A stretch of 64,000 bases of DNA, taken from an uncultured Gemmatimonadota bacterium (GTDB lineage Bacteria; Blakebacterota; Blakebacteria; Blakebacterales; Blakebacteraceae). Under the pieces are notes generated by a model. That model saw nothing but the letters and a program-made list of their open reading frames with translations. It made no database searches and had not been told where the DNA came from. The translations under genes were made by a program, and so were the position numbers. The stretch lies in the NCBI GenBank assembly GCA_964576115.1, contig CAZNUA010000002.1, positions 21,789 through 85,788 on the forward strand. Direction: 5' to 3'. Of this stretch, positions 8,718-53,590 are shown piece after piece. Every line of letters starts with the position of its first letter. Position 1 is the first letter of the stretch.

Positions 8718-9347
8718 TCAAACGCTATGGCAGATCTGGTTGAGCAGCAGCAGCTGCCAGCCCCGTCCCGGTGTGTGCTGCAGAACGGTCAGCGAGCTGT
8801 TGTCGACGGCGAAGCGATAGCGCTGATCAAGTCCCAGGTCGAAGAGCCGGCAGATAACACCCCGGATCGGACCGGAGTGGGTAAAGAAGGCTGCCGCCCG
8901 GCCGGCCAGGTCGGCGGCGACACGCTCGAGGTAACTCCACGAGCGTTCATGCATGTCGGCGAGGCTCTCCCCTCCACCGCGGGCGTAGATCGTTTCCCGG
9001 CGCCGCCACTCGTCCAATCCCTCCGGATCCCGTTCCCGGACTTCGTCCAGGGTCAGTCCTTCCCAGGCTCCGTAGCCGCATTCCCGCAATTCGGGCGTAG
9101 CGATGAGGGGCAGTTCCAGTTCCACCGCCGCGGCCTCGGCCATTTCCCGGGCCCGGCTCAGATCGCTGGTGTACACCGCCGCGGGCGCCCAGGGGCGCAG
9201 GGCTGCGATAACGGCGGGGATGGTGAGCCGGCCCTCGTCGCTCAACGGCGTGTCGGCATGTCCCTGGAAGCGCTGCTCGCTGTTCCACGCCGTGACCGCG
9301 TGCCGGACCAGGACGAGGCGGGTGGTTTCAGGGGACGGGTTTGCCAT
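8718..9347 (-). CDS. histidine phosphatase family protein (phosphoglycerate mutase-like)
   Basis: RHG motif LVRHAVTAWN and catalytic His later in the protein; overlaps the nth stop by 20 nt. Confidence 0.75.
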   Translation of the reverse strand: MANPSPETTRLVLVRHAVTAWNSEQRFQGHADTPLSDEGRLTIPAVIAALRPWAPAAVYTSDLSRAREMAEAAAVELELPLIATPELRECGYGAWEGLTLDEVRERDPEGLDEWRRRETIYARGGGESLADMHERSWSYLERVAADLAGRAAAFFTHSGPIRGVICRLFDLGLDQRYRFAVDNSSLTVLQHTPGRGWQLLLLNQICHSV

Positions 9348-13364: not shown

Positions 13365-15104
13365 CTAGAACGGGTTATAGGTCCAGCTCACGAATACCTG
13401 CCACTCCTGCCCCAGCGAAGCCGGCGGAACGGGCGAGATTCCTGTGCTGCGGTCGTGCGGCCACAGACCGGCGGGAGCGCGGAGGATCTCGGCCTTCAGA
13501 CGCCAGTGATGCTCGCCCTCGAACATCGCCCGGGCCCCGACCCAGGCCCCGAGGCGATCGGGGCCGAACATGAACTGCTTGCTGATGGGGTCAGGATACT
13601 GCTCGCTGCGGGGCGCCTCCCCGCCGGCCCGGGCGTAACGCCCCCACAGCGCGAGAGTGAGCCGGGGCGAGGCCAGCCAGGAGATCCGGCCCTGGAGGAC
13701 CTCAGAGTTCTGCCCGCTCCAGAAACCGAGCGGGCTCTCCCAGTGGGTCCAGTCGTTGACGGGAAAACGGTGCCGGAAGACATAGGGCAGGATCCGGGTG
13801 GCCTCGAACCAGAGATGCCAGCGGCCCCCGTCGACGGGGGGAACCCATGACGCTCCGAGCTGGAAAGCCATCCAGTTGTGAGCGGTCGAGTCGGCGAAGG
13901 TATCGCCGATCTGCCACTCGTCCACAGCGAAAACACCGTAGAGCGATGGTCCCCGCTGCGGCTGGAAGTTCAGATCCACCTGCATCATGGCGTTGTCGGG
14001 ATCGAAGAGATAGTGCTGGGCGTCCCAGAGGGTGACCGTAGGCACCAGGTAGAGCAGCTCGGGGAAGCGGTCGGCCGCGATGATCATCTCCTGCAGACCG
14101 AGGTGCAGGACCGGCAGGGGGTGCAGTTCGAGCCGGTGTCCGATGAGGTACTTCTGGCGTTCCAGCCAGCGCCGATCGGTATCGACCGGGGGCTGATATG
14201 AACGTAGCGAATCGATGATCCCCGACTTCAGCGTCCCGGCCAGCATGGTGAAACGCAGCCAGTTCCCGAAGGCCACCCGCCCCTGCAGGTGCCCGAAGCC
14301 GGGAGCGTGCCCGGAGAGGAGCAGATTGCGCTCGGGGCTGGGACCCCAGGCGGGGGAATCGAGACGGATGTCTGTCCCCAGATAGCGACCGTCGAAGGAC
14401 AGATGGCCGCTGCTCTCGTTGTAGGCCACCATGTCGAGGAAGGCGTTCTGCAGCGGTACGGCCTGTCCCGGATCGGTGGCCCACTTTCGGACCGTCCCCT
14501 GGCGGCTTTCGTTGCTCTGCCGGTAGCGGGCGGCATACCCGATCCCGCGTCCGGCGGTGCCGTAAACCTCGACTCCCCCCCGGCCGATCAGGGCCGCTTC
14601 ATTGTCGGGGGGGATGTCGGTCCGTCCGTCCCAGGCCAGTTCAAGGGTCATTTCGGCCGTCAGGCTCGCCTCGCCCTCGGCCCACTCCAGGCACAGCGGC
14701 GCGGGGCGCGGCTCGATCGAAGCCGGATCTCCGTCCAACTCGGCGACAAACTCGCGCAGCCTCCATTCTCCGGCCGCAGCCAGGGCCTCCAGACCGCGCT
14801 CGCGCGCCCGGGCCACACCGGTCGCCAGCGCCCGGGCCACCGCCCGTCGGGAGAGCGGCCGCACGTCGAGCCAGGCATCGGTGAGCAGTCCGGCCCCCCG
14901 GAAGAGCTCGAGCGTCGCGTAAGCGGGATGACCCTGACCGAGATAGATGGTGGCGGCCGGCGGCGCAGTGGCGGACTCCTGGGCCGAAACCGTACCTGCG
15001 GAAAAGCCGTTCGGCAACCCGGAGAGGCTGACGGCGAGTGAGACAAGAAGGGCGGCGGCACCCCGAGGGAACCGCCGCCCGAATCGTGCCCGGCGAGAGG
15101 CCAT
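13365..15104 (-). CDS. outer-membrane beta-barrel protein (C-terminal aromatic residue; possibly Wzi-like)
   Basis: Signal peptide (MASRRARFGRRFPRGAAALLVSLAVSLS), alternating amphipathic beta-strand pattern, terminal ...WTYNPF. Start at the internal Met whose ATG overlaps the upstream stop by 1 nt. Confidence 0.55.
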   Translation of the reverse strand: MASRRARFGRRFPRGAAALLVSLAVSLSGLPNGFSAGTVSAQESATAPPAATIYLGQGHPAYATLELFRGAGLLTDAWLDVRPLSRRAVARALATGVARARERGLEALAAAGEWRLREFVAELDGDPASIEPRPAPLCLEWAEGEASLTAEMTLELAWDGRTDIPPDNEAALIGRGGVEVYGTAGRGIGYAARYRQSNESRQGTVRKWATDPGQAVPLQNAFLDMVAYNESSGHLSFDGRYLGTDIRLDSPAWGPSPERNLLLSGHAPGFGHLQGRVAFGNWLRFTMLAGTLKSGIIDSLRSYQPPVDTDRRWLERQKYLIGHRLELHPLPVLHLGLQEMIIAADRFPELLYLVPTVTLWDAQHYLFDPDNAMMQVDLNFQPQRGPSLYGVFAVDEWQIGDTFADSTAHNWMAFQLGASWVPPVDGGRWHLWFEATRILPYVFRHRFPVNDWTHWESPLGFWSGQNSEVLQGRISWLASPRLTLALWGRYARAGGEAPRSEQYPDPISKQFMFGPDRLGAWVGARAMFEGEHHWRLKAEILRAPAGLWPHDRSTGISPVPPASLGQEWQVFVSWTYNPF

Positions 15105-16720
15105 CAGACCTTCTCGGAAATGCTCTTCGGCTGGGTGAAGAGGAAGAGGTAGTCGAACCCTCCCGCCTTCGAGTCGGTCCCGCTCATGTTGAAACCGCCG
15201 AAGGGGTGACCGCCCACCAGGGCGCCGGTACACTTGCGGTTCACGTACAGGTTCCCGGCATGGCAGCGGTCCTTCCCCTTCTCGATCTTCTCGCGGTTGG
15301 TGGAGTAGATCGCTCCGGTCAGGCCGTAGATCGAGTCGTTGAAAACGTCGATGGCGTCATCGAAGTCCCCGGCCTTGATGACCGCCGCGACCGGTCCGAA
15401 GATCTCCTCCTGGGCGAGGCGGTCCTTGCGATCGATGTCGGCGATGATGGTGGGCTGGATGTACCAGCCTTCTCCCGCCTCGCTGTCGCGCGCCCCGCCG
15501 GTCACGAGCCGGCCTTCCTCTTTGCCGATCTCGATGTAGGCCAGGTGATCGTTCATGGCCCCTTCGTTGATCACGGCCCCCATGTAGTTGGCCTGATCGG
15601 CGGGATCGCCGACCGCGATCTTTTCGGTCTCGGCCACGAATTTCTCGAGGAACTCGTCATAGACGTCCTCGCAGACGATGATGCGCGAGGCTGCGCTGCA
15701 CTTCTGACCCTGGAAACCGAAGGCGGAAGCGGTGCAGCCCCTGGCGGCCTCGTCCAGATCGGCCTCGGAGTCCACGATGATGGCGTCCTTGCCGCCCATC
15801 TCGAGGATGGTCCGTTTGATCCAGATCTGCCCTTCGGGGGCCTTGGCCGCTTCGGCGTTGATGTGCAGGCCGACCTCCATCGACCCCGTGAAAGCGATCA
15901 GGCGGGTCTTGGGATGCTTGACCAGGTAATCTCCGGCCGAGGCGCCCGCCCCGGGCATGAAGTTGACCACGCCCTCGGGCAGGCCGATGTCCTGCAGGAT
16001 CTTGAAGTACTGGTACCCGATTCCGGGGGAATCGCTCGAAGGTTTGAGGACGACCGTGTTCCCCGCCACCCAGGCCGCCGTGGCCATACCGCACAGGATC
16101 GCCAGCGGGAAGTTCCACGGCGGTACCACCAGAGCCACCCCGAGGGGGATGTAACGCAGTTCGTTGTCCTCGCCCGGGACCGGGGTCAGGGGCTGGGGAG
16201 CGGCGTAGCGGACCATCTCCCGGCCGTAGAAGTCGAGGAAGTCGATCGCTTCGGCCACGTCGGCGTCGGCCTCGACCCACGACTTGCTCTCCTCGAAGAC
16301 CATCCAGGCGGCCAGTTCGAGCCGGCGCTCGGTCATCAGATCGCAGGCTTTCCAGGCGTACTCGGCCCGCTCCCACGGATCGGACCACTGCCACGTCTCG
16401 AAGGCGTCCAGGGCCGCATTGATGGCGATATCGGCCTCATCCTTCTGCGCTTTCGAGAAGGATCCGATCAGTTCGTCGGGGTAGGACGGGTTGTAGCTGG
16501 GCAACTGAGCTTCGGTCCAGATTTCCTTGCCGCCCAGAATCAGCGGGTAGTCGCGGCCGAATTCGGACCGCACTTTTTCCAGGGCGGCCGTCATGGCCTG
16601 AACGTTCTCATCTTTCGAGAAGTCGGTCAGGGGGCAGTTGCGGAACTCCCCCCGCTTCTCCATTACTTCTTTGGGCCAGGTCGCCTCAACGGCCCTGGTC
16701 ATGGTTCCGCTCTCTGACAT
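15104..16720 (-). CDS. L-glutamate gamma-semialdehyde (1-pyrroline-5-carboxylate) dehydrogenase, aldehyde dehydrogenase family
   Basis: ALDH catalytic Cys (FGFQGQKCSAASR) and Glu (LEMGGKD) motifs; RocA/PruA-type N-terminus PLTDFSKDEN; start at MSESG. Confidence 0.85.
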   Translation of the reverse strand: MSESGTMTRAVEATWPKEVMEKRGEFRNCPLTDFSKDENVQAMTAALEKVRSEFGRDYPLILGGKEIWTEAQLPSYNPSYPDELIGSFSKAQKDEADIAINAALDAFETWQWSDPWERAEYAWKACDLMTERRLELAAWMVFEESKSWVEADADVAEAIDFLDFYGREMVRYAAPQPLTPVPGEDNELRYIPLGVALVVPPWNFPLAILCGMATAAWVAGNTVVLKPSSDSPGIGYQYFKILQDIGLPEGVVNFMPGAGASAGDYLVKHPKTRLIAFTGSMEVGLHINAEAAKAPEGQIWIKRTILEMGGKDAIIVDSEADLDEAARGCTASAFGFQGQKCSAASRIIVCEDVYDEFLEKFVAETEKIAVGDPADQANYMGAVINEGAMNDHLAYIEIGKEEGRLVTGGARDSEAGEGWYIQPTIIADIDRKDRLAQEEIFGPVAAVIKAGDFDDAIDVFNDSIYGLTGAIYSTNREKIEKGKDRCHAGNLYVNRKCTGALVGGHPFGGFNMSGTDSKAGGFDYLFLFTQPKSISEKV

Positions 16721-16830: not shown

Positions 16831-19212
16831 TCAGTACCCCCGGCCCTCCCCACGCGGGACCACGACCGGTTCGTCATCCACCAGATAAGCCGTGAACCAG
16901 TCAACATACTCCCTCAGGCGCCTGACCAGCAACCACGGCTCGCCCGTTCGCGACAGGCCGTGCGAGGAGTCGGGGAAGAGGACCATCTTGACCGGCACTT
17001 CGTTCTTCTGCAGGGCCCGGTACCACTGTTCCCCTTCCTCGAGGGGACAGCGGTAGTCGTTGATGGAGTGGACGATCAGGGTCGGAGTGCTGACCTGATC
17101 GGCCCAGGCGATCGGGCTGAGCATCATGGCAAGGTTCCAGCTGCCCTCCTCGTCGCTGCGGAAGGGCCAGGGGCGCCCGCCGAACTCGCGCTCGACCAGA
17201 CCCGAGGCGTCGGAGACGCCGTAGAAACTGATCCAGTTGCAGATGCTCCGGGCGGCGATAGCGCAGCGGAAGCGGTCGGAATGGGCAGTGATCCAGTTGG
17301 TCATGTAGCCGCCGTAGGAACCGCCCGTGACACCCATGAAGTCCTCGTCCACCAGCCCGCGATCCACGACCAGGTCGACCGCCTGCAGGTAATCCTTGTA
17401 GTCGTCGATCCCCCAGGCCTCCATGATCATGCCCGAGAACTCGCTGCCGTACCCGCTCGACCCGCGCGGGTTGATATAGAGCACGAATATGCCCGACGCA
17501 GCGATCATCTGGAACTCGGGGAACCAGGTTTCGGCATACATCGAGTGCGGGCCGCCGTGAATCGAGAGCACCAGCGGATACTTCTGCCCTTCGACATAGT
17601 CGAGGGGGTACATGAGCCAGCCCTCGACCTCGGGCCGCTCCCCGCGCCGTGCCTCGTGGGTCATCATGTACTCCACTCCCCGCCGGGGAAGCTGCTCGAG
17701 CCAGTCGGGATCGTGCGGGGCGCCGGTGAAGGTGATCCGCTCCACCCGCGAGAGTTTCACGTCCCCCATCCAGGCGGTATTGGCCTCGCTGATCCGGGTC
17801 TCACCGCTGCCGTCGAGGCGGGCGACATAGGCTTCCCAGGGCATTTCGGCCGTGTCCTTGACATAAGCCACTTTCGTCATGTCCCGATCGAAGGACACGC
17901 CGGACAGGCTGTGGCGGCCTTCGGTCACAGCCGAGTACTCCCCGGTCGCAAGGGTCAGCTGCATGATCTGGGTCTGGCCGCCGATGCGCGAAGTGGTGTA
18001 GAGGCAAGCGTCATCGGCCGCCCAGCTCAGGCTGCCGAAGCCATATATCCAGCCGTCCCCGAATTCGGCCACTGTCGTCCCGGACCGGTCGATGACCCGG
18101 GTGATGGTTGGGCTTTCCCGGTCGGGGCTGATCGAGTAAGCCAACCTGTCTCCATCATGAGACATGACGATTCCGCGGGGACTGCCCGTTTCGGTGACGA
18201 TATGGACCGGCTCACCGCCGGCGACCGGGAGCAGGAAGATTCCCGTCTCCCGCGAACCGCCCCGGCCCATGAACATCTCCTCCGGGGTCGGTTCTTCGCT
18301 TTCTTCCCGTTCCTCGTGCTGGAGCATGTCCTGGGTGTAGATGATCCAGCGGCCGTCGGGACTGAAGCCGGCAAAGGACTTGTTCCAGGCGTCGAAGGTG
18401 ATCTGTTCGGGTTCTTCGCCCTCGGCCAGTCCGTCGGCGGGGGTGCGGAAGAACTGGGTGTAGCGGGGCGGCCCCTCGCCCCGGCCGCCACGCTGCTCAG
18501 CGCCCGGGAACTGGCGCATCATCCCGCTCATTCCCGAACCACCGCCGGTGACGAAAGCCAGCTGGCCATCCCGCTTGTAGGTGGAATTGGTGATGACGTA
18601 TACATCGCGGTTGCGTTCGGCTTCGGTCGTGCCGGCCCATTCGGTTCCCGTCCGGCGGGTCAGGGCGGGGATACCGTCGGGCCGCGAGGGCCGCTCGCCC
18701 CGCTCGGGGCGGGCCCGTTCCTCCTCACCGGGTTCGGCGGGAGGCTCCTCACTCTCCTCGGCTACGGCTCGGGAAGTCAGGATCCAGCTGCCGTCGGGGT
18801 GGAAGGTGGGGTTGCCGCTGATCCCGTTGATCCGGTAAGCCTCGCCCCCCGGTTCGAGGAAGTTGATGAAGTGCGTACCGCTTTCTTCACCCCGGGTGGT
18901 CGAGAACCAGATCCGGCGCCCGTCGGGAGTCCAGTGGGGGCTGGTGGTATTCACCCCTGCGGTGGAGAGCCTCTGGGTGCGGCCGGTTTCCAGATCGGCC
19001 CACCACACCTCGGTCATCCGGTCGTTCTGTTCGCGCCGCACCGTCTGTACGGTATAGAGCAGGTAACGGCCGTCGGGGCTGAGCTCGGTCGAACCCACCC
19101 GCTTGACGCGGTAGTAATCATCGGGCTCGATAGCCCGTTTCTCCTGCGCTCCGGCCAGCAGAGGCAGGAGCAGGATCAGCAGGAGCGGGAGTCGCAGGGT
19201 GTGTCGTCGCAT
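16831..19212 (-). CDS. S9 family serine peptidase (prolyl oligopeptidase / acylaminoacyl-peptidase type) with N-terminal beta-propeller
   Basis: Signal peptide MRRHTLRLPLLLILLLPLLAGAQE; catalytic GGSYGG nucleophile elbow; C-terminal alpha/beta hydrolase region. Confidence 0.85.
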   Translation of the reverse strand: MRRHTLRLPLLLILLLPLLAGAQEKRAIEPDDYYRVKRVGSTELSPDGRYLLYTVQTVRREQNDRMTEVWWADLETGRTQRLSTAGVNTTSPHWTPDGRRIWFSTTRGEESGTHFINFLEPGGEAYRINGISGNPTFHPDGSWILTSRAVAEESEEPPAEPGEEERARPERGERPSRPDGIPALTRRTGTEWAGTTEAERNRDVYVITNSTYKRDGQLAFVTGGGSGMSGMMRQFPGAEQRGGRGEGPPRYTQFFRTPADGLAEGEEPEQITFDAWNKSFAGFSPDGRWIIYTQDMLQHEEREESEEPTPEEMFMGRGGSRETGIFLLPVAGGEPVHIVTETGSPRGIVMSHDGDRLAYSISPDRESPTITRVIDRSGTTVAEFGDGWIYGFGSLSWAADDACLYTTSRIGGQTQIMQLTLATGEYSAVTEGRHSLSGVSFDRDMTKVAYVKDTAEMPWEAYVARLDGSGETRISEANTAWMGDVKLSRVERITFTGAPHDPDWLEQLPRRGVEYMMTHEARRGERPEVEGWLMYPLDYVEGQKYPLVLSIHGGPHSMYAETWFPEFQMIAASGIFVLYINPRGSSGYGSEFSGMIMEAWGIDDYKDYLQAVDLVVDRGLVDEDFMGVTGGSYGGYMTNWITAHSDRFRCAIAARSICNWISFYGVSDASGLVEREFGGRPWPFRSDEEGSWNLAMMLSPIAWADQVSTPTLIVHSINDYRCPLEEGEQWYRALQKNEVPVKMVLFPDSSHGLSRTGEPWLLVRRLREYVDWFTAYLVDDEPVVVPRGEGRGY

Positions 19213-19353
19213 CACAGAAGCCTCCATATAGCGGTAATCCGGACCGGTTGCGGGGTGAGTGTATGACCGCCGCACCCCGGGCGCAACGGGCATGGCCCCA
19301 TCCCGAATACACCCGGCGGGGGGGATTCCTTGGTACGAGCCGGCGGCCTAATC

Positions 19354-28530: not shown

Positions 28531-29739
28531 TCAGGCGCCGAATTTCTGCAACCGATCGGCGTGCCCGAGAGCCAGCCCCATGAGATGCATCATGGGGAAG
28601 GTGCCCAGGGTGCCCCGGTGGGCGCAGGCGATCTCGGAAAAAGTCTCGACCCCGCTCCAGCGGGCAACGGGCGAGTGCAGCAGGACCGGAACCGAGTGAC
28701 CGGAGTGGGCCCGGACCAGGGCCGGGGTGGAGTGATCGCCGGTCACGACCACCACCCCGGGGCCCAGTTCGAGGAAACCGGGCAGGGCGGCGTCGGCTTC
28801 TTCGATGGCGGCCACTTTGGCGTCGAAGTCGCCATCTTCGCCGCGGGCATCGGTGGCCTTGAAGTGCACGAAGAAGAAATCGTGGCTCGACCAGTAGCCG
28901 GTAACCGCCTCGAGCTGCCCGGCCAGGTCGGTGGCTCCTTCGTGGACATCCATGCCGAGCAGGCGGCTGATGCCCTTGTACATCGGGTAGGTGGCCACCG
29001 CCACCGCCCGCAGACCGAAGCGCTCCTGCAGGCTCGGGTAGCGCCGGAAGCGGGCGATCCCCCGCAGCAGGGGATAGTAAGCCGGTTCGCCGGCTGCCGC
29101 CAGAGGACCGGTCACCTGTTCGAGCAGGGTGCGCAGCAGTTCGGATGCCGGCTCGGCCTCGGGTCGCAGGGCCTCGACCGGCAGGGGCGGTACGCCGGTA
29201 GCCTGGGGATCGGTGTCGGCGATACCGTCGGCCAGTTCGATGCCGTCGGGGCGTAGAACGACCGCCGCCCGGTGTTCCTTGACCGGTTCGACGAAGACCT
29301 CTACCCCCTCAAGCCCGATGGCGTCACGCATGATAGCGCACAGACGCCCGCATTCTTCGGTCCGGATCCGCCCGGCGCGCCGGTCGATGATTCGACCTTC
29401 GGCGTCGACGGTGGCGAAATTGACCCGGATGGCCAGATCCCCCTCGGCCAGCCCGAAACCGATCCCGGCCGCTTCGAGCACCCCCCGGCCGATGTTGTTC
29501 TCGACCGGATCGTATCCGAAGAGCGCAAAATGCCCCGGCCCGCTCCCGGGGGCGATTCCGGGCAAAACCGGTACCGTGAGTCCCGTCTCGGATCGGGCCG
29601 CCAGCTCGTCGAGGACCGGGGTGCGGGCCGCCTCGAGTTCGGTCTGCCGCCGGTCCGGATCGGTCGTCCCGCCCAGACCGTCGAGGATGTAATAGAGGAT
29701 ACGGCAGTCGTTCTGTCGAACGAGTTCATCGGGCAGCAT
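28531..29739 (-). CDS. cofactor-independent phosphoglycerate mutase, archaeal type (ApgM) / metalloenzyme-superfamily phosphomutase
   Basis: Alkaline-phosphatase-like metal-binding motifs (YILDGLGG..., VVVTGDHSTP, HSGHSVP); start at MLPDEL with GGAGAG RBS; the track ORF extends to 29880. Confidence 0.7.
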   Translation of the reverse strand: MLPDELVRQNDCRILYYILDGLGGTTDPDRRQTELEAARTPVLDELAARSETGLTVPVLPGIAPGSGPGHFALFGYDPVENNIGRGVLEAAGIGFGLAEGDLAIRVNFATVDAEGRIIDRRAGRIRTEECGRLCAIMRDAIGLEGVEVFVEPVKEHRAAVVLRPDGIELADGIADTDPQATGVPPLPVEALRPEAEPASELLRTLLEQVTGPLAAAGEPAYYPLLRGIARFRRYPSLQERFGLRAVAVATYPMYKGISRLLGMDVHEGATDLAGQLEAVTGYWSSHDFFFVHFKATDARGEDGDFDAKVAAIEEADAALPGFLELGPGVVVVTGDHSTPALVRAHSGHSVPVLLHSPVARWSGVETFSEIACAHRGTLGTFPMMHLMGLALGHADRLQKFGA

Positions 29740-29860
29740 CGTACAACTCTCCTGGAACGGGTGGGGAACCTGTCCTACATTACAGGTGTGCCCGGACCCG
29801 GTCAGTAGAAAAGGCCGGACCGGAACAATGCTCGCCGCCCTGTCGTATAGCAGAGGTGCC

Positions 29861-30694
29861 ATGACCGACGACGACCGCACCGGTACCGGACCCGAATCCG
29901 GCGACGATCTTCCCCGCGAGGAGTACTACTACGACCTGCCCGGTTCCGAGGGAGACCGGCGGGACGCTTCGCAGGACGGGGGATCGGGCTCGAGCCGCAC
30001 GCCGGGAAACGGCAGGAGGGGCAACAGTCACCAGTACGATCTGGGGACCTGGATCGTGGACGGCTGGCACGTGATCCGCGATGAGCTCGTCGGTTACATG
30101 ATCGCCGCTTTCATCCTGGCCCTGATTCTGGTCATCGCCCTGAGGATCCACGTCCTGATCTATATTGCGATCGGCGGCCCCCTGAAGGCCGGCTTTTTTC
30201 TGATGACCATCAACCACATGCGCACCGGCAAGCCGCCGCACATCGGCGATCTCTTCCAGCCGTACAACCGGTACGTGCCGATAACTCTCGCTTTCCTGCT
30301 CATGAGCGCCTTTTCGGCCATCGGATTCGTCCTCTGTCTGGTTCCCGGCATCATCGTGCTGGGAATCTACCTCTTCACCTTCCTGTTCATCATCGACAAG
30401 GGCTACGATTTCTGGGAAGCAATGGAAGCCAGCCGCCGGGTGGTTTCGCGCGACTACATGCTCTTTTTCCTCTTCGCTCTGGTGCTGCTGGTACTCAACT
30501 TCGCAGGCCTGATCTTCTTCATAATCGGTCTGCTCATCACTCTGCCGCTGCAGTTCGCCGCGATCGCCTGCGCCTACCGGCAGATCGTGGGTCTGGAGCC
30601 CGAGCCGGCCGTGCGCCCCTATGAGCCGCGTCCCCGGCCCTACCCGGGCACAACCGGTCCAGAAGACAGCGACTACCCCGATATCATTTCATAG
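29861..30694 (+). CDS. integral membrane protein of unknown function (about 6 TM) with acidic N-terminus and Pro-rich C-terminal tail
   Basis: Hydropathy pattern only; start uncertain (track ORF starts 29786; Met at 29828 or 29861). Confidence 0.45.
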   Translation: MTDDDRTGTGPESGDDLPREEYYYDLPGSEGDRRDASQDGGSGSSRTPGNGRRGNSHQYDLGTWIVDGWHVIRDELVGYMIAAFILALILVIALRIHVLIYIAIGGPLKAGFFLMTINHMRTGKPPHIGDLFQPYNRYVPITLAFLLMSAFSAIGFVLCLVPGIIVLGIYLFTFLFIIDKGYDFWEAMEASRRVVSRDYMLFFLFALVLLVLNFAGLIFFIIGLLITLPLQFAAIACAYRQIVGLEPEPAVRPYEPRPRPYPGTTGPEDSDYPDIIS

Positions 30695-32013: not shown

Positions 32014-33816
32014 CTAATCCTCGTCTGTGATCGAGAGGAAGGCCAGAAAGGCTTCCTGGGGGATCTCGACCTGTCCCACCGCCTTCATCCGTTTCTTGCC
32101 CTCCTTCTGCCGTTCCAGAAGCTTGCGCTTGCGGGTCACATCGCCGCCGTAGCATTTGGCGGTCACGTTCTTGCGCAGGGCGCTCACGGTTTCCCGGGCG
32201 ATGATCCGGTTGCCCACCGCGGCCTGAATGGCCACGGCGAAGAGCTGACGGGGGATGAGTTCCTTCAGGCGCCGGGTGAGTTTGCGCCCCCACTCATAGG
32301 CCTTGCCGGCATGCACGATCATGCTCAGGGTGTCGACCGGCTCGCCGTTGAGCATGATATCGAGTTTCTGCACCGCTCCGGGCCGCCAGCCGCTGAACTC
32401 GTAATCGAGGCTGGCGTAACCGCGGCTGACCGATTTCAGTTTGTCGTAAAAGTCGAACACGATCTCGGCCAGGGGCAGGCCGAGGGTGATCATGACCCGC
32501 TCTCCGCCCAGATACTCCATGGTGCGGTGTTCGGCCCGCCGCTCCTGACAGAGGGTCATGAGGTTGCCGATGTAGGCCTGGGGGGTGGTGATGTGGGCTT
32601 CGACCCACGGTTCCTCGATCCGTTCGATGCGCTGCGGTTCGGGGAGCAGGGCCGGGTTGTCGACCGCCAGGGTTTCGCCGTCGGTGGTAAGCACGCGGTA
32701 TTCCACGCTCGGCACGGTGGCGATGATCCCCAGACCGTGCTCGCGACTCAACCGCTCCTGGACGATTTCCATGTGGAGCAGGCCGAGGAAGCCGCAGCGG
32801 AACCCGAAGCCCAGGGCGGCGCTCGATTCCGGCTCGAAACTGAGGGCGGCGTCGTTGAGCTGCAACCGTTCCAGGGCATCCTTGAGGTTGCCGTGATCCT
32901 CACTCTCCATCGGGTAGATACCGCTGAAGACCATCGACTTGGCCCGCTGGTAGCGGGTCAGGGGTTCTGCGGCCGGAGTGCGGGCGTCGGTGATGGTGTC
33001 ACCGACCTGGGCGTCACGGATCGTCTTGATCGAGGCGCACAGGTAGCCGACCTCGCCGGCGGTCAGTTCATCGCGCTGCTCGCGGCGCAGGCGGAAGATG
33101 CCGACCTCGTCGATCTCGAACGTCTTGCCCGAGCCCATGAGATGGATGTCCTGCCCCGGCCGGAGCGAACCGTCGACCACCCGCAGATGGGGCACCGCCC
33201 CGCGGTAGGTATCGAAAACCGAATCGAAGATCAACGCCCGGAGCGGGGCGCTCGCTTCGCCCGCCGGGGCCGGGATACGGTCTATGACCGCTTCGAGCAC
33301 CGCGGCGATATTGGTCCCCTCCTTGGCCGAGACCGGGATGACGTCCTCGGGCGCGACGCCGATCAGATCGCACAGTTCGGCCGTCACGTCGTCGGGGCGG
33401 GCGCTCGGCAGGTCGATCTTGTTCACCACCGGAATGATCTCGAGATCGTTTTCGATCGCCAGGTAGAGATTGCTGAGGGTCTGGGCCTCGATCCCCTGAC
33501 TGGCGTCGACCACCAGCACGGCCCCCTCACAGGCGGCCAGCGAGCGGGAGACCTCGTAGGTGAAGTCGACGTGGCCGGGGGTGTCGATGAGGTTGAGAAT
33601 GTAGTTCTCACCCCCCCGCTCCCAGGCCATACGGACCGGGTGCATCTTGATGGTGATGCCCCGCTCCCGCTCCAGATCCATGTCGTCGAGAACCTGGTCG
33701 ACCATCTTCAAGCGTTCGAGGGTGCCGGTTGCTTCGAGCAGGCGATCGGCCAGGGTCGACTTGCCGTGATCGATGTGGGCGACGATGCAGAAATTGCGGA
33801 TGAGGGTCTGATCCAT
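32014..33816 (-). CDS. lepA: translation elongation factor 4
   Basis: N-terminus [27 protein letters not shown] and all GTPase G motifs; 600 aa; characteristic LepA C-terminal domain. Confidence 0.95.
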
Positions 33817-33857
33817 CGGATCTCAGTCGGAGAGCGGACCGCGGTCGGAGCGGATAC

Positions 33858-35499: not shown

Positions 35500-35955
35500 T
35501 TACCCTTTGAGCGAACGCAGGGCCTTTTTCATCTCCCGCCTGGCTTCATCATCCTCTATCCGGCGCCGTTTGTCACCCTTGCCGCGCCCGCGGGCCACGG
35601 CCAGGAGGATTTTGGCATACCCCCCCTGAAAATACAGTCTGACCGGCACGAGGGTCAGACCCTTCTGAGAGACCCGGCCGATAAGCCGCCGGATCTGGTG
35701 ACGATGGAGCAGCAGCTTGCGCGGGCGTTTCGGCTCGTGGTTGCTGTAACCGCCCTGCTCGTAAGGCGGTATATGGCAGTCGATCAGCCAGACCTCGCCG
35801 CCCTCGATGCGTGCGAAACTGCCGCTCAGATCGGCCCGCCCGGCCCGCAGGCTCTTGACCTCGGTGCCGGTCAGAACCAGACCGGCTTCGACGGTTTCGA
35901 TGATCTCGTAGTCGCGCCGGATCCGTTTGTTCGAGGCCACCAGGCGCTCTGCCAT
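35500..35955 (-). CDS. smpB: SsrA-binding protein
   Basis: Conserved SmpB core (NKRIRRDYEI...GTEVKSLR...WLIDCHIPPY) and basic C-terminal tail; start at MAERLV. Confidence 0.9.
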   Translation of the reverse strand: MAERLVASNKRIRRDYEIIETVEAGLVLTGTEVKSLRAGRADLSGSFARIEGGEVWLIDCHIPPYEQGGYSNHEPKRPRKLLLHRHQIRRLIGRVSQKGLTLVPVRLYFQGGYAKILLAVARGRGKGDKRRRIEDDEARREMKKALRSLKG

Positions 35956-36098
35956 GACGATCACCCGCCGGGTTTTCTGTCCGGGAACTGAACTGGCGTG
36001 CATCCGGAGTTTCCGGATGGGCACAAACTACGCCGAGCAGGGCAGGCGGAATAGGGAAAAGGCATGGTGCCGCCGGTGCGCCACCCCCTTCCCGGATC

Positions 36099-36138: not shown

Positions 36139-36225
36139 GCCGAAGTGGTGGAATTGGTAGACACGCTGCGTTCAGGACGCAGTGGGCGCAAGCCCGTGTG
36201 GGTTCAAATCCCTCCTTCGGCACCA
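36139..36225 (+). tRNA. tRNA-Leu (anticodon CAG), class II tRNA with long variable arm, CCA encoded
   Basis: Acceptor GCCGAAG/CTTCGGC, D-loop AATTGGTAGA, anticodon stem-loop CTGCG-TTCAGGA-CGCAG, variable stem GGGC/GCCC, T-loop GGTTCAAATCC, 3' ACCA. Confidence 0.85.
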
Positions 36226-45810: not shown

Positions 45811-48800
45811 TCATTTCAACAGCAGGATTTTCCGCGTCATCCGGCGACGGTCCAGTTCCAGCACCACCAGGTACACCCCGGCGGCGACCCGCCGGCCGTC
45901 ATTGTCGGTGCCGTCCCAGCGGACCTGGTAGTCGCCGCCGGCGGTAGCCCGGTCGATGAGCAGCCGCACGCATCGGCCGCGCACATCCCTGATCTCGAGC
46001 CGGAGTCGATCGGATCCGCCTGCCGGCACCCGGTAGCGCAGACAGGTCTCGGGATTGAAGGGGTTCGGCACGGCCGGCAGCAGAGCCGCCTCCGGCGCTG
46101 TCTGAGGCACCGTCAGCGCAGCCGGGCCGAGCCAGAGAACCGGCCGGCCGGGCCGCACGATACGGACCGCCACAGCCTCGGGTGCCGCCTGCCCCTGCGG
46201 ACCGGGCTCGAGTTCGAGTTCCCAGGCGCACCCCGGCGGGGCAGGAGGCGAAAAACTCTCCCCGATACCGGTCGGCAACCAGAGCCGGTCGTCACCGGGG
46301 GGGCCACCGCCTCCCCGCGGAGCCCCGTAGCCGGCGTAGAGAGCACTCTCGATCCCCTCGCCGCCGGCCAGGACCTGCCAGCGCACCTCGACGAGCAGGG
46401 GTCCGCGCCGGGTGGTTTCGAGACCGCTCACGGCCAGTCCGGGGCCCGCCGCTTCGGCCCGGAGCAGTCGCGTGCGATCGGCGTGGATGTCCAGGGGGGT
46501 GCAGCGCCAGCCTCCGTCGGGAGCCAGTTCGCGCAGATCCACAGCCATTTGACCGCTCCCGCTTCCCGACAGCAGCACAGCCAGGTCGGCGTACCAGGTG
46601 AGGCCCGCTGTCCGGGCCCTGACCGTCGTGCCCCCGGCAGTCAGCAACAGGGGTCGATCGGGATGCGGCGCCGCGCCCCGGCACCAGCGGGGCATGGCGG
46701 GCAGGGCCGGTGCCGCTACCGTCACGGCCCGCGTCCAGCGGCGTTCTCCATCGGCTGTCTGCCGGGTGAGTTCGACCCGCCACCGGCCCGCCTCCAGGCC
46801 GCTGATCCGGTGTGAGTGCCACGACCGGTCGCCGCCGAGAGCCGCACTCCAGCGGGGCTGCCCTCCCGCGGAGATGAGCCGCACCTGCCCGGGACCGGAA
46901 CCCGCCCAGAGCAGCTCGAGGGTACCCGGCCCGGCAGCCCAGACCTCGAGCGCGGGCCGATCGACCGGCTCGCTCGATCCCCCGCCGTCACCTCCCACCC
47001 GGCCGAGAGCGATTCCAGCCGTCCCGGCCGGCTGCCAGGTGAGCAACGAGTCGATGTCGATCGCCACGGCGTCTCCCCAGCCGATGGTGAAGTCCTCTCC
47101 GATCAGCTCGCCTTCCGAGGTGCGGAAGCACCCCCGCCAGGCCTGGCGGTACCCATCCCAGGAGCTGACGCTTAGCACAGCCGGGTCGTCCAGAACCGCG
47201 GCTGCCGTGCGCACCCGGGTGGAATCGCACACCCCGACCAGGGCCAGACCGCCGCCCCTCGCGAGTGACGGAGGGTCATAACGCCGGGGACCGTGCCAGG
47301 TCAGGGTGCAGGGAGCCGTACTCACGACAGCGTACCCGGCGCCGGGTACGAGGGTGAAATCGTCGCCGGCCGTACTTCCGTCGGTCAGGCGCAGAGCCGA
47401 GCACCAGGCCGCCGAGAGCTGATCCCACCGGGCTACTTCCCCCGCCGCCGGCAGAGCCGACAGCAGAGAAAAGGCCCCGGTGCAGGCCGGATCGTCGAGA
47501 GTGGGAGTGATCAGGGTCACCCCGGGGGAGAGAACGCAGGCCCGGTCGGCCCGGTGAGCGATACGGATCGCAGCGGGTGAGGTCACCGTCGCCGGGGGGT
47601 TCAGACCGTCCTCGACACGGGCCGCGAGCCGCCAGAGCGTTCCTTCGGGCAGGTCGAAGAGTTCGACCGCCACCGTACCCCGGTCAGTGCGATCGAGAAC
47701 CTGCGGCACGGTCAGGGCGGGCGCCGTCCGGCTTCCCCCTTCCTCTTGCAGGGTCAGGGTGGCCCAGGCCTGGCCCGGATCGGCGAGACTGTATTCGAGC
47801 AGAAGCACCGAATCGACCGCGGCTCCGACGGGGAAGTCGAGCCAGGTGAAAATCGGCGGCGGATCGGTGGCCAGGGCCGGCAGGATGACCTCCTGCGGCG
47901 AGTCCCCGCTCACCGTGACGAGCCCCGAGGCGACCCCCGCAGCGGCCCCGTCGGCCTCGATTGTCAGGGTATCGCCGGCCGCCCAGGAGCAGGCCGATCC
48001 CCCGATGGTCCGCAGGTTGCCCAGGTTCAGGGCCCAGCAGCCGGTCGAGTCGCTGCGCGTGGCGAGCCAGCCCGAACGGGGTGTGGCGCCCCCCAGTCTC
48101 AGGAATACCTGGGCTCCCCCCACCGCCTCGCCGCTTACCGATCCGACGAGGCATCCGTACACGGTGCGGGGCACAGAGGTGACGACCGTCCCTGTTGTCA
48201 ACGAGGTGAACGTATCAGCCGGAGCGGGAGTACCCGCGCTCACGACCCGCCAGGTCACGGTAGTGCCGGGGTTGAGACCGTAGTGTTCGACCAGGTGGAG
48301 CAGTCCGGCGGGGTTGCCGTCCCAGGTGCGGCGCAGGTGTGATCCGGAGAGGATTTCGAGCCGTCCGTCAGCGGCCGTGCTGCTCCGCCAGGCGACACCG
48401 AATCCGGCGCTGGTCAGATTGACGATCCTGGTCCGGTACAGCATCGGCGCGCTTGTGTCGGGACCCCCGTCCGGAGTCGCGGGCCCGGCCGGACTGAAGG
48501 CCGCCGCGAACCGGGTGGCATGATCGCAGAAATCGCCCGCCCCTTCCGGATCGCGGACCCAGGCGGCATCGGTGTCCCAGCCGGCATAGGTGATATCCTG
48601 CAGGGTGTCGGGACCGGCGGGATCGATCAGAAGCAATCGTCCGGCGGTATTGCTCAACCCCGATCCCAGCCGGCCGTCATCCACGAAGCATCGGCCCGGT
48701 AGAGTGGTCGGCTCCCCACCGCCGAAAAGGGTGACATACTCGCCCGGAGCCAGCCTGGTTCCGGGCGGGAAGGTGAAGGGATCGGCTCCGGCCGGGCCGA

Positions 48801-49047
48801 GTATCCAGCCTGACACGTCCACCGGCCCGGCGCTCCGGTTGACCAGTTCGATGAACTCGTCGGCATACGTATCCCGGACGCCGTCGCCGTTGGCGTCGCC
48901 GGCCAGATCGGCGGGGGGATCGGCGAGCACCTCGTTGATGACGACCGGAGGATCTGTCTCCTGAGCCCACAGAGACAGGGGCAGGGTCGCGACAGTCAGC
49001 AGTACTGTCGCCGCTCCCGCCCGCAGAAGCAGGTTCGCAGGTTGCAT
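45811..49047 (-). CDS. large secreted protein with lamin-tail domain (LTD) and C-terminal type IX secretion (Por) sorting domain
   Basis: Signal peptide; LTD signature (VVINEVLADP...DEFIELVNRS...VDVSGWIL); C-terminal about 80 aa with a T9SS CTD pattern (LEIRDVRGRCVRLL...GVYLVVLELDRRRMTRKILLLK). Confidence 0.75.
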   Translation of the reverse strand: MQPANLLLRAGAATVLLTVATLPLSLWAQETDPPVVINEVLADPPADLAGDANGDGVRDTYADEFIELVNRSAGPVDVSGWILGPAGADPFTFPPGTRLAPGEYVTLFGGGEPTTLPGRCFVDDGRLGSGLSNTAGRLLLIDPAGPDTLQDITYAGWDTDAAWVRDPEGAGDFCDHATRFAAAFSPAGPATPDGGPDTSAPMLYRTRIVNLTSAGFGVAWRSSTAADGRLEILSGSHLRRTWDGNPAGLLHLVEHYGLNPGTTVTWRVVSAGTPAPADTFTSLTTGTVVTSVPRTVYGCLVGSVSGEAVGGAQVFLRLGGATPRSGWLATRSDSTGCWALNLGNLRTIGGSACSWAAGDTLTIEADGAAAGVASGLVTVSGDSPQEVILPALATDPPPIFTWLDFPVGAAVDSVLLLEYSLADPGQAWATLTLQEEGGSRTAPALTVPQVLDRTDRGTVAVELFDLPEGTLWRLAARVEDGLNPPATVTSPAAIRIAHRADRACVLSPGVTLITPTLDDPACTGAFSLLSALPAAGEVARWDQLSAAWCSALRLTDGSTAGDDFTLVPGAGYAVVSTAPCTLTWHGPRRYDPPSLARGGGLALVGVCDSTRVRTAAAVLDDPAVLSVSSWDGYRQAWRGCFRTSEGELIGEDFTIGWGDAVAIDIDSLLTWQPAGTAGIALGRVGGDGGGSSEPVDRPALEVWAAGPGTLELLWAGSGPGQVRLISAGGQPRWSAALGGDRSWHSHRISGLEAGRWRVELTRQTADGERRWTRAVTVAAPALPAMPRWCRGAAPHPDRPLLLTAGGTTVRARTAGLTWYADLAVLLSGSGSGQMAVDLRELAPDGGWRCTPLDIHADRTRLLRAEAAGPGLAVSGLETTRRGPLLVEVRWQVLAGGEGIESALYAGYGAPRGGGGPPGDDRLWLPTGIGESFSPPAPPGCAWELELEPGPQGQAAPEAVAVRIVRPGRPVLWLGPAALTVPQTAPEAALLPAVPNPFNPETCLRYRVPAGGSDRLRLEIRDVRGRCVRLLIDRATAGGDYQVRWDGTDNDGRRVAAGVYLVVLELDRRRMTRKILLLK

Positions 49048-49192
49048 ACGGATCTCCCGAAAGCCTGATGCCGGGGGGTCGGCAGGTTTATTGGGGGAGC
49101 CTGTGGGGGGGGAAATGGTGCGGTGGGGGTAACCGAACGGGAGTATACTTCCCGGGGGGAAAGAGCACAAGGACCGGTCGCCCGGAAGCTCC

Positions 49193-51941: not shown

Positions 51942-52901
51942 TCAGGGCGCCCGGAAGCGCAGGGCCCGCGGCGCGCAGGTGAACTCGATCTCGGTGACGC
52001 CGGTTTCGGTGATCTGGCCGTCGGCGTGGAGCAGGATCGGTTCTTCCCCCTCGACCGTCAGGCTGGGTTTTCGGAGCATGGTGACGTGATGCAGGTGCGT
52101 ATGCTTGCCTGTAGTCGCCCGGGGGAGCAGACGCAACACGGTCGGGACGGGGATGTCGTGTACCAGACAGCAGTCGAAGAGGCCGTCGTCCCATTCGGCG
52201 TCGGGCAGCAGCGTGAAGCCGCCCCCCTCGCGGGTGCCGATACCGATCGTGAGCAGATATACCAGGTCGTCATACCTGTATTCGGGAGCGGTCAGGACCA
52301 TCGGGATCGAGCGGTACTTGTAGAGCGATTCGAGCACCGTCACCAGGTACATGACATACCCGCGCAGGCGGGTATGGCGCAGGCTGTAGGCCGTCACGGC
52401 GGCACTGAAACCCAGGCCGATCGTATTGAAGAAGGGTCGGCCGTTGAAGAATCCGACATCGGTGCAATACACGTTCCGGGAGGTGAGCGCCGCAATGGCG
52501 CCGTCGAGGTCCTCGGGGATACCCCGGCAACCGGTGAAATCGTTACCTGAACCCATCGGGATGGCGCCGAGAACGGCCTCGGAGTCCCACATGCCCCGGG
52601 CCACCTCGTGCACCGTACCGTCGCCCCCCACCGCCACGACCGTGTCCGCCCCCTGCTCGACGGCCTCGCGCGCCAGCTCGGTGGCATGACCCTCCGCTTT
52701 GGTGACGACCGGCGTGAACTCCAGGCCGGCTTCGACCAGGGCGCCCAGGATCTCCCGCTCCCGCCTGGCCACCAGCCCACGGCCGGCAATCGGGTTCATG
52801 ATCACCACGGTGGTCCCCAGAGGTACTGTCTCGGCGGATGCGCGCCGGGTGGCGCGGTCGGCCGCGGGTCCGGTTCGCTCTTTCACACCGGCTCCTCTCA
52901 T
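51942..52901 (-). CDS. YegS/BmrU-family lipid kinase (diacylglycerol kinase catalytic domain)
   Basis: Motifs VVIMNPIAGRG, VVAVGGDGTVHEV, IPMGSGNDF; start taken at Met 52901 so the gene does not run through the tRNA-like element. Confidence 0.75.
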   Translation of the reverse strand: MRGAGVKERTGPAADRATRRASAETVPLGTTVVIMNPIAGRGLVARREREILGALVEAGLEFTPVVTKAEGHATELAREAVEQGADTVVAVGGDGTVHEVARGMWDSEAVLGAIPMGSGNDFTGCRGIPEDLDGAIAALTSRNVYCTDVGFFNGRPFFNTIGLGFSAAVTAYSLRHTRLRGYVMYLVTVLESLYKYRSIPMVLTAPEYRYDDLVYLLTIGIGTREGGGFTLLPDAEWDDGLFDCCLVHDIPVPTVLRLLPRATTGKHTHLHHVTMLRKPSLTVEGEEPILLHADGQITETGVTEIEFTCAPRALRFRAP

Positions 52902-52940: not shown

Positions 52941-53040
52941 TGGCGGGGAAGGGTGGGAATCGAACCCACCCCGGACGCTACGAACGCCCGGCAGAAGGCT
53001 TTGAAGGCCTCGGGGGCCACCAGACCCCATCAATCCCCGC
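52941..53040 (-). tRNA. tRNA-like gene, probable selenocysteine tRNA (anticodon UCA), non-canonical geometry
   Basis: Minus-strand sequence GCGGGGATTGATGGGGTCTGGTGGCCCCCGAGGCCTTCAAAGCCTTCTGCCGGGCGTTCGTAGCGTCCGGGGTGGGTTCGATTCCCACCCTTCCCCGCCA: 7-bp acceptor, 6-bp D-stem GGGGTC/GGCCCC with 4-nt loop, anticodon loop CUUCAAA (UCA), 7-bp extra arm, T-loop GGTTCGATTCC. Confidence 0.5.
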
Positions 53041-53188
53041 AGTATTCGTTCCCGGCCTCGGTCCGGTCGGCTCGCGCCTGGCATCACCCGGCCGGGAGCG
53101 GTGTGACATCATACCACACCCCGCCTCCCCGTTCAGCCCTCTCGGGAGGGCCGCCGGTGCCCGGCGGTAAAGTCGCCGGTCGACCTGC

Positions 53189-53590
53189 TCAGCCGCCCGT
53201 GACGGCTATGAGTTCGATGGCGATCCGCGCCCCGAGCGGCAGGGCGGCCGCTTCCAGAGCCGCCCGGGCGGGGGGTGTGTTCCCCACCCGGCGGCCGTAG
53301 ATCTCGTTGAAGGGCGCGAAATCGGCCAGGTCGGCGAAGTAGACGGTCGCTTTGACCACCTCATCCCACCCGGTCCCGCCGGTTTCCAGGATCGCCGTCA
53401 GGTTGTCGAGCACCCGTTCGGTCTCGGCCTCGATCCCCCCCGACACCAGTTCCCCGCTCCCGGGATCGAGCGCAATCTGCATGGCCGTGAAGAGCAGCCT
53501 GCGCCCACCCCCCAGGTCGGCGGCGATGCCCTGGCTGTAGGGGCCGATCGCGCCCGGGGCGTCCGGGGTTTCAATGGCTCGGTGTGCCAT
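53189..53590 (-). CDS. ridA: RidA/YjgF-family reactive intermediate deaminase
   Basis: GPYSQG motif and conserved C-terminal core; only the last 133 codons of the long track ORF are protein-like. Confidence 0.8.
   Translation of the reverse strand: MAHRAIETPDAPGAIGPYSQGIAADLGGGRRLLFTAMQIALDPGSGELVSGGIEAETERVLDNLTAILETGGTGWDEVVKATVYFADLADFAPFNEIYGRRVGNTPPARAALEAAALPLGARIAIELIAVTGG

Follow-up and report, generated by a model that had tools for sequence, protein, structure and literature searches.

The window, the whole 64-kb stretch of DNA that was analyzed, comes from an uncultured FCB-superphylum bacterium with a G+C content of ~67%. Relatives of its LepA (74–80% identity) are labelled "Candidatus Zixiibacteriota" and "Gemmatimonadota" at NCBI, and one SelD of the clade bears the NCBI label Gemmatimonadota. 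Two RNA genes and no others were detected in the 64 kb: a selenocysteine tRNA gene (tRNA-Sec, selC) on the minus strand and a tRNA-Leu(CAG) gene at 36139–36225 on the plus strand. The earlier note on this DNA had described a minus-strand class-II tRNA with selC hallmarks, proposed a check with ARAGORN and allowed that a Sec covariance model might score it below threshold. ARAGORN called tRNA-SeC(tca) on the minus strand at 52941..53039. The Rfam covariance model RF01852 matched 52945..53038 on the same strand with 66.2 bits (E 2.9e-11) against a gathering score of 47, and all 91 model positions (1–91) are covered. Related tRNA-Sec genes pass the same threshold in eight of eight cases tested, at 64.7–73.3 bits. 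Judged by sequence and model score, the gene is a genuine bacterial tRNA-Sec of the known family, and the hallmarks described in the note are borne out.

The gene order is SecD, SecF, MurQ-like, RidA, tRNA-Sec, YegS-like kinase and DUF5683. The upstream neighbor ridA (53189–53590, minus strand, 133 aa) matches Pfam Ribonuc_L-PSP and NCBIfam TIGR00004, and the exact RidA protein of the window is also present on JGI and Logan contigs. A 150-nt spacer (53039..53188, minus strand) separates the ridA stop from the tRNA. Downstream, the gene for a 314-aa lipid kinase of the YegS/Rv2252/BmrU family (51942–52886, minus strand) begins 54 nt after the tRNA and is a conserved neighbor. Its matches to Pfam DAGK_cat and YegS_C and to NCBIfam TIGR00147, with those of RidA, uphold the two neighbors named earlier. 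The window also encodes smpB (35500–36027, minus strand) and lepA (32014–33822, minus strand). A protein of ~1,100 aa with LTD and FlgD_ig domains is encoded at 45811–49170 on the minus strand, adjoining ECF sigma factor and DUF8173 genes, and is conserved downstream in all syntenic relatives. Two coding-looking open reading frames, at 13365–15356 (minus strand, 663 aa) and 29696–30694 (plus strand, 332 aa), had no Pfam match at E ≤ 1e-5.

The mature tRNA-Sec is 98 nt in length (52941..53038, minus strand), compared to 95 nt in E. coli; on the evidence of the ARAGORN and Rfam calls, it runs from G1 at 53038 to the last A of the encoded CCA at 52941. All of its elements are read on the minus strand. 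The 5′ strand of the acceptor stem, GGGGAUUG, occupies positions 1–8 (53031..53038), as read from the sequence, alignments and pair counts, and is followed by the 2-nt linker AU at positions 9–10. In the RF01852 alignment, the D arm (53013..53028) has a 6-bp stem, GGGGUC/GGCCCC, that includes one U·G, and a 4-nt loop, UGGU. C27 stands between the D arm and the anticodon arm (52994..53011), which was defined by ARAGORN and RF01852. The anticodon stem has 5 bp, formed by 28:45 and by 29:43 to 32:40 with position 44 bulged, and its 7-nt loop CUUCAAA presents the anticodon UCA at 53004–53002. The long variable (extra) arm spans positions 48–68 (52971..52991), with a stem of 7–9 bp between 48–56 and 60–68, and G69 stands between it and the T arm (52953..52969). 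The T arm has a 5-bp stem, GUGGG/CCCAC, and the loop UUCGAUU (GGUUCGAUUCC), both invariant in 20 aligned sequences. The 3′ strand of the acceptor stem, CCUUCCCC, occupies positions 87–94 (52945..52952) by sequence reading and pair counts. The RNA ends in the discriminator G73 (52944) and an encoded CCA (52943–52941; 52941..52944 together), identified from the alignment. The serine-tRNA synthetase (SerRS) identity elements, a long extra arm and G73, are thus present with the CCA end, as is the SelA recognition element, a 6-bp D stem with a 4-nt D loop. The D-arm dimensions, the CUUCAAA loop giving UCA and the T-loop sequence are as the earlier note had read them. Its 7-bp extra arm holds as a long arm; the stem is 7–9 bp and not exactly 7.

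The note's reading of the RNA ends did not stand. It had reported a 7-bp acceptor stem, a 7-bp T stem, one unpaired U between them and no clearly encoded CCA, and had proposed a possible variant tRNA-Sec architecture on that basis; this geometry is due to a wrong 5′ end. The 3′ end ...CCCC-G-CCA is encoded at 52948–52941, and all 20 aligned relatives, like E. coli selC, have the same G73 and CCA. The minimum-free-energy fold of 52941–53040 does reproduce the 7/7 geometry with the unpaired U, because the leader bases G 53040 and C 53039 pair with C74 and G73. This leader pairing is not conserved: the locus L014 has GG at the two bases. Five of six window-type genes, and about half of the wider relatives, have G-C immediately before G1 (53039–53040 in the window); these bases can pair with G73 and C74 and so misled the energy fold. 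With G1 at 53038, the 5′ side consists of 8 nt, a 2-nt linker and a 6/4/6 D arm, and the 3′ side of a 5-bp T stem, 8 nt, G73 and CCA, both as in E. coli selC. The nucleotide counts are the canonical bacterial 8 + 5.

Orthologs were obtained by following the adjoining YegS-like kinase gene into public assemblies and by a metagenome scan. The window-type set comprises six tRNAs (the window and loci L013, L009, L011, L014, and L129), and 14 more distant tRNA-Sec of the same broad clade complete an alignment of 20 sequences with a mean column identity of 87%. Over these 20 sequences, 95.5% of the cloverleaf cells are paired, and eight pairs show double (compensatory) changes. None of 500 shuffles reached the observed pairing or covariation score, and controls with slid pairings were 42–57% paired. 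Covariation is present in four helices. The D stem is paired in 100% of cells, with compensatory changes at three pairs, and the anticodon stem covaries at 29:43 and 32:40. In the extra arm, the six window-type sequences have C-G at pair 48:68; 13 relatives have U-A there, and one has U·G. The UCA anticodon is invariant in all 20.

Three further assemblies of the same population have an identical tRNA-Sec, and across the five related window-type lineages its identity is 97–99%. In the same comparison, the upstream spacer is 3–58% identical and the downstream spacer 28–60%, and the YegS proteins are 49–83% identical to that of the window. No substitution in a stem disrupts its pairing (G-C becomes G·U, and U·G becomes C-G). 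In L013, which belongs to the same sub-clade (YegS 83%), the tRNA is 98% identical and both differences maintain D-stem pairing, with flanking spacers at 58–60%. Conservation of 97–99% in the tRNA against 3–60% in its flanks points to strong purifying selection and not decay. Together with the pairing-preserving substitutions, it contradicts the alternative of a decayed or opal-suppressor-like gene that had been left standing earlier. From these comparisons, the tRNA-Sec gene is almost certainly functional.

Wherever the RidA-YegS locus of a related lineage was retrieved, it contained a syntenic selC ortholog. L014 and L129 share the tRNA type of the window, and their RidA and YegS genes enclose a selD immediately upstream of the tRNA, at the site of the 150-nt spacer of the window; selD sits there in many other relatives as well. 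The selD product of L014 and L129 is a SelD equivalog (TIGR00476, 342 bits). Both genes have an in-frame TGA at the catalytic position (..CAG-U-ASKLGP..), then a conserved hairpin; in selD of the clade, a GGGUCC-GGN-GGACC hairpin begins ~14 nt past the UGA. At least 120 metagenomic loci match the SelD UGA/SECIS DNA pattern, and in the 120 listed, RidA adjoins selD in 30 and tRNA-Sec accompanies selD in 18. Of the relatives with RidA-selD-selC, the closest have YegS downstream, and some sister lineages have RidA-selD-selC-DUF5683. RidA-selD-selC is therefore the widespread and probably the ancestral arrangement. At the RidA-selC site, selD is absent from the window, L013, L009, and L011. The organism of L011, which has RidA-selC-YegS without selD there, encodes a Sec-containing selD elsewhere, between peptidase S9 and UPF0182 genes, on a locus from the same two JGI samples and with the same G+C as its selC locus. 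The isolation of selC in the window arises because selD is missing from the RidA-selD-selC site in this sub-lineage. It is a rearrangement of the cluster and not evidence against function. Since the SelD of the clade itself requires UGA decoding, a tRNA with the pyrimidine·pyrimidine mismatches described below would work in Sec insertion, at least in the organisms of L014, L129, and L011.

All SelDs of the clade are selenoproteins, and their active-site motif is [ST]C[AS]G-U-ASKLGP; Sec occupies the position of E. coli Cys17, and Ala-Ser replaces the E. coli Gly-Cys. UGA-containing selD genes lie at 8813–9865 in L014, 9860–10897 in L017 and 3573–4607 in L129, and in L021, L024, and L025 the UGA-containing part lies upstream of the called selD. 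Gene callers start selD of the clade 17–52 codons past the UGA, so that products of 298–326 aa, shortened, stand in databases. In L017, L018, L021, L146, and L148, selD has moved, usually to the order NTP_transferase, peptidase S9, selD, UPF0182, and selC has remained beside ridA. A UPF0182 gene is lacking from the window, whose peptidase S9 (16831–19347) is only 29% identical to that of the relocated-selD locus. In the wider relatives, lepA is found just downstream of selC-DUF5683; lepA of the window is ~20 kb away from the tRNA. A scan for consensus promoters and terminators found no full sigma-70 site and no terminator around the tRNA. A −10-like element, TGgTATGAT, is found upstream of the window tRNA at 53116–53108 (minus strand), and −10-like elements in the other selD-less lineages L013, L009, and L011 are TATCAT, TACGAT, and TAAGAT. 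The distance from this element to the tRNA is 27–69 nt in the window, L009, and L011. The element may be a dedicated selC promoter that replaces co-transcription with selD.

The window was searched for the remaining Sec machinery by tblastn with SelA, SelB, and SelD of E. coli and with SelD of the clade; UPF0182 and peptidase S9 proteins of the clade served as further queries. No SelA, SelB, or SelD was found in the 64 kb, in agreement with the earlier statement that selA, selB, and selD are not beside the tRNA. A SelB-like match at 33112–33792 is LepA and was rejected as SelB. A GTPase adjoining selC in wider relatives was also rejected as SelB and identified as LepA. Pfam annotation of ~30 window open reading frames contained nothing selenium-related, and a scan of the 64-kb window for in-frame TGA between coding-like segments revealed no selenoprotein-like gene. 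Three candidate SelDs of the clade (P0160, P0280, and P0308) were rejected, as they come from other samples or have a G+C of ~0.60–0.64 against 0.67–0.68 in the host contigs. SelDs of the P0172 type were absent from the fetched loci, and the metagenomic SelD-pattern loci listed (at least 120) held no match from sample 3300029258. A scan of genome-collection contigs with YegS returned only distant relatives (27–32% identity) and no representative genome of the lineage. The failure to find the host's own sel genes is a weak negative because its own YegS, ThrB, and LepA are also missing from the searched collections. A literature search returned nothing specific on tRNA-Sec in Gemmatimonadetes/Gemmatimonadota.

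The tRNA differs from canonical bacterial tRNA-Sec within the acceptor stem. In the 8/5 register, pairs 1–5 of the window tRNA are four G-C and one A-U and pair 8:87 is G-C, with 6:89 as U·U and 7:88 as U·C (U6 at 53033, U7 at 53032, C88 at 52951, and U89 at 52950), so that six of eight acceptor pairs are standard. Positions 6, 7, 88, and 89 are always pyrimidines in the five other window-type lineages, in the combinations U·U/U·U, U·U/C·U, and U·C/U·U. The 14 more distant relatives have covarying C-G or U-A at 6:89 and G-C at 7:88. The eighth acceptor position is a conserved purine·purine (A·G or G·A) in 14 sister sequences (L027, L028, L040, L063, and others). Sister tRNA-Sec thus have effectively seven Watson-Crick acceptor pairs and one non-canonical layer. 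The real peculiarity of the window tRNA is modest: a clade-conserved tandem pyrimidine·pyrimidine mismatch at acceptor pairs 6 and 7, closed by G8-C87.

C87 of the window tRNA can pair with G8 or with G69, which permits a functional tRNA with a remodelled junction: a 5-bp acceptor stem, a T stem of 6–7 bp (G69-C87, with or without G68-Y88), one or two bulged nucleotides on the 3′ strand and a 5-nt linker on the 5′ side. Such a junction would be a new bacterial tRNA-Sec architecture and close to the impression given in the earlier note. Minimum-free-energy folding yields it for the precursor as well as for the mature RNA. Nearest-neighbor energies are −50.7 to −50.8 for the extended T stem (G69-C87, with or without G68-C88) and −47.6 for the 8/5 fold with mismatches, a difference of ~3 kcal/mol in a model that takes no account of tertiary contacts or of the non-canonical pairs U·U and U·C. 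G69-C87 and G68-C/U88 can also form in six of six window-type sequences, where the change from C88 to U88 retains a G·U. Against this, G68 covaries with position 48 and is therefore part of the extra arm. The 14 sister sequences have Watson-Crick pairs at 6:89 and 7:88, with C-G to U-A covariation at 6:89, and their T stem is not extendable, as 68:88 and 69:87 are unpaired in 13–14 of the 20 sequences. An acceptor/T helix of 11–12 bp with a bulge would furthermore shorten the 13-bp helix described in reviews as the SelB determinant (PMC7609411). The remodelled junction is accordingly considered unlikely. The comparisons favor the 8/5 register with tandem pyrimidine·pyrimidine non-canonical pairs over the extended T stem, because 48:68 covaries and the T-stem extension is impossible in sister lineages.

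A different alternative concerns function: the host may have lost its Sec machinery with the adjacent selD, leaving the tRNA as a relic, a serine-inserting opal suppressor or an RNA with another role. The missing selD at its usual place beside selC, the lack of any sel gene or selenoprotein candidate within the 64 kb and the lack of a clade-type SelD assignable to the host would all fit such a loss, although database coverage of the host is patchy. A relic would drift like its flanks, yet the L013 comparison shows the tRNA far better conserved than either spacer. The features related to SelA, SerRS, and SelB are all retained, and the L011 organism, whose selC site is likewise without selD, nevertheless has a gene for a Sec-containing SelD elsewhere. 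Loss of Sec decoding is therefore regarded as highly improbable. That the locus is a chance tRNA-like sequence or an annotation artifact has a negligible probability: the high regional G+C and nothing else speaks for it, against the full-length RF01852 match with its low E value, the syntenic orthologs and covariation in four helices. The account preferred with good confidence is that of a functional selC with 8 + 5 counts, a tandem pyrimidine·pyrimidine mismatch specific to the sub-clade and selD absent from a cluster of the ancestral type.

For this preferred account, the established bacterial pathway suggests how the tRNA would be made and used. RNase P would cut the transcript at G1 (53038), and the 3′ end would be the encoded G73-CCA. 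SerRS would charge the tRNA with serine via G73 and the long extra arm. SelA would read the D arm of 6 bp and 4 nt and convert Ser to Sec with selenophosphate from SelD. SelB would then deliver Sec-tRNA to UGA codons that precede a SECIS hairpin. The Sec-decoding trait is marked by the signature genes selC and selB (PMC1273633). The conserved selC makes it likely, on sequence grounds, that the host makes selenoproteins.

Canonical bacterial tRNA-Sec (RF01852; 8/5, as in E. coli and Aquifex aeolicus) shares with the window tRNA the UCA anticodon in CUUCAAA, the 6-bp/4-nt D arm, the 2-nt linker after 8 acceptor nucleotides, the long extra arm, the 5-bp T stem, the following 8 nt, G73, and CCA. 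The window tRNA differs from it in pairs 6 and 7, which are not Watson-Crick, and in its location, as selC is not beside selA or selB and retains the ridA-adjacent place of the RidA-selD-selC cluster. Soil and sediment sister tRNA-Sec (L027, L028, L040, and others) have the same overall length, D arm, T arm, and G73-CCA, and lie in the same neighborhood, RidA-selD-selC-DUF5683. Their acceptor stems have seven Watson-Crick pairs and a purine·purine eighth, whereas the window type has five Watson-Crick pairs, two pyrimidine·pyrimidine pairs and a G-C eighth. Allo-tRNAs have a 12-bp acceptor branch (8/4 or 9/3) and mostly sense anticodons. This class was rejected, as the window tRNA counts 8 + 5, has the anticodon UCA and is syntenic with selD in relatives. 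The selC∗ tRNA-Cys has U73 and an 8/4 structure and is associated with selB∗/cysS∗ (PMC5389517); it was rejected on the discriminator G (52944) and the 5-bp T stem of the window tRNA.

Functional bacterial tRNA-Sec with 12-bp acceptor/T helices include 7/5 forms with bulges (Cloacimonetes type, Epsilonproteobacteria) and 8/4 forms with A51a (PMC5330540, PMC5389517). Their genes coexist with selA, selB, and selD, so an irregular acceptor/T helix is tolerated (PMC5330540, PMC5389517). The window tRNA is not a variant of this kind: it has 8 residues (52952–52945) between the T stem and G73 and an invariant 5-bp T stem, and its irregularities are mismatches and not bulges or deletions. Eukaryotic tRNA-Sec (9/4) has conserved non-Watson-Crick U6:U67 and 5a:67b in the acceptor stem (PMC7609411). 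What the two share is conserved non-Watson-Crick oppositions, U·U among them, next to the G-C pair that closes the acceptor stem at its inner end. The eukaryotic RNA belongs to another domain, has a 9/4 fold and works with PSTK, SepSecS, and eEFSec, and the resemblance is by analogy only. By that analogy, the mismatch and the C87 that can switch between G8 and G69 might be a lineage-specific structural determinant and not neutral drift, forming a distorted or switchable acceptor/T junction that SelB of the clade needs or that blocks EF-Tu. This idea is put forward as unlikely.

For annotation, the locus illustrates that leader bases included in a fold can yield a false "non-canonical geometry", and that rearrangement of a selD-selC cluster can account for a selC without neighboring sel genes, which then need not be read as a sign of decay. 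The selC of the window marks an uncultured lineage of the FCB group as a probable selenocysteine user. If the mismatch were a structural determinant, it would represent a tRNA-Sec architecture not described before in bacteria. Within the clade, the acceptor stems form a natural series, from seven Watson-Crick pairs with a purine·purine to five Watson-Crick pairs with two pyrimidine·pyrimidine pairs and a G-C, that would allow a test of what SelB and EF-Tu of bacteria read in the region of the "8th base pair".
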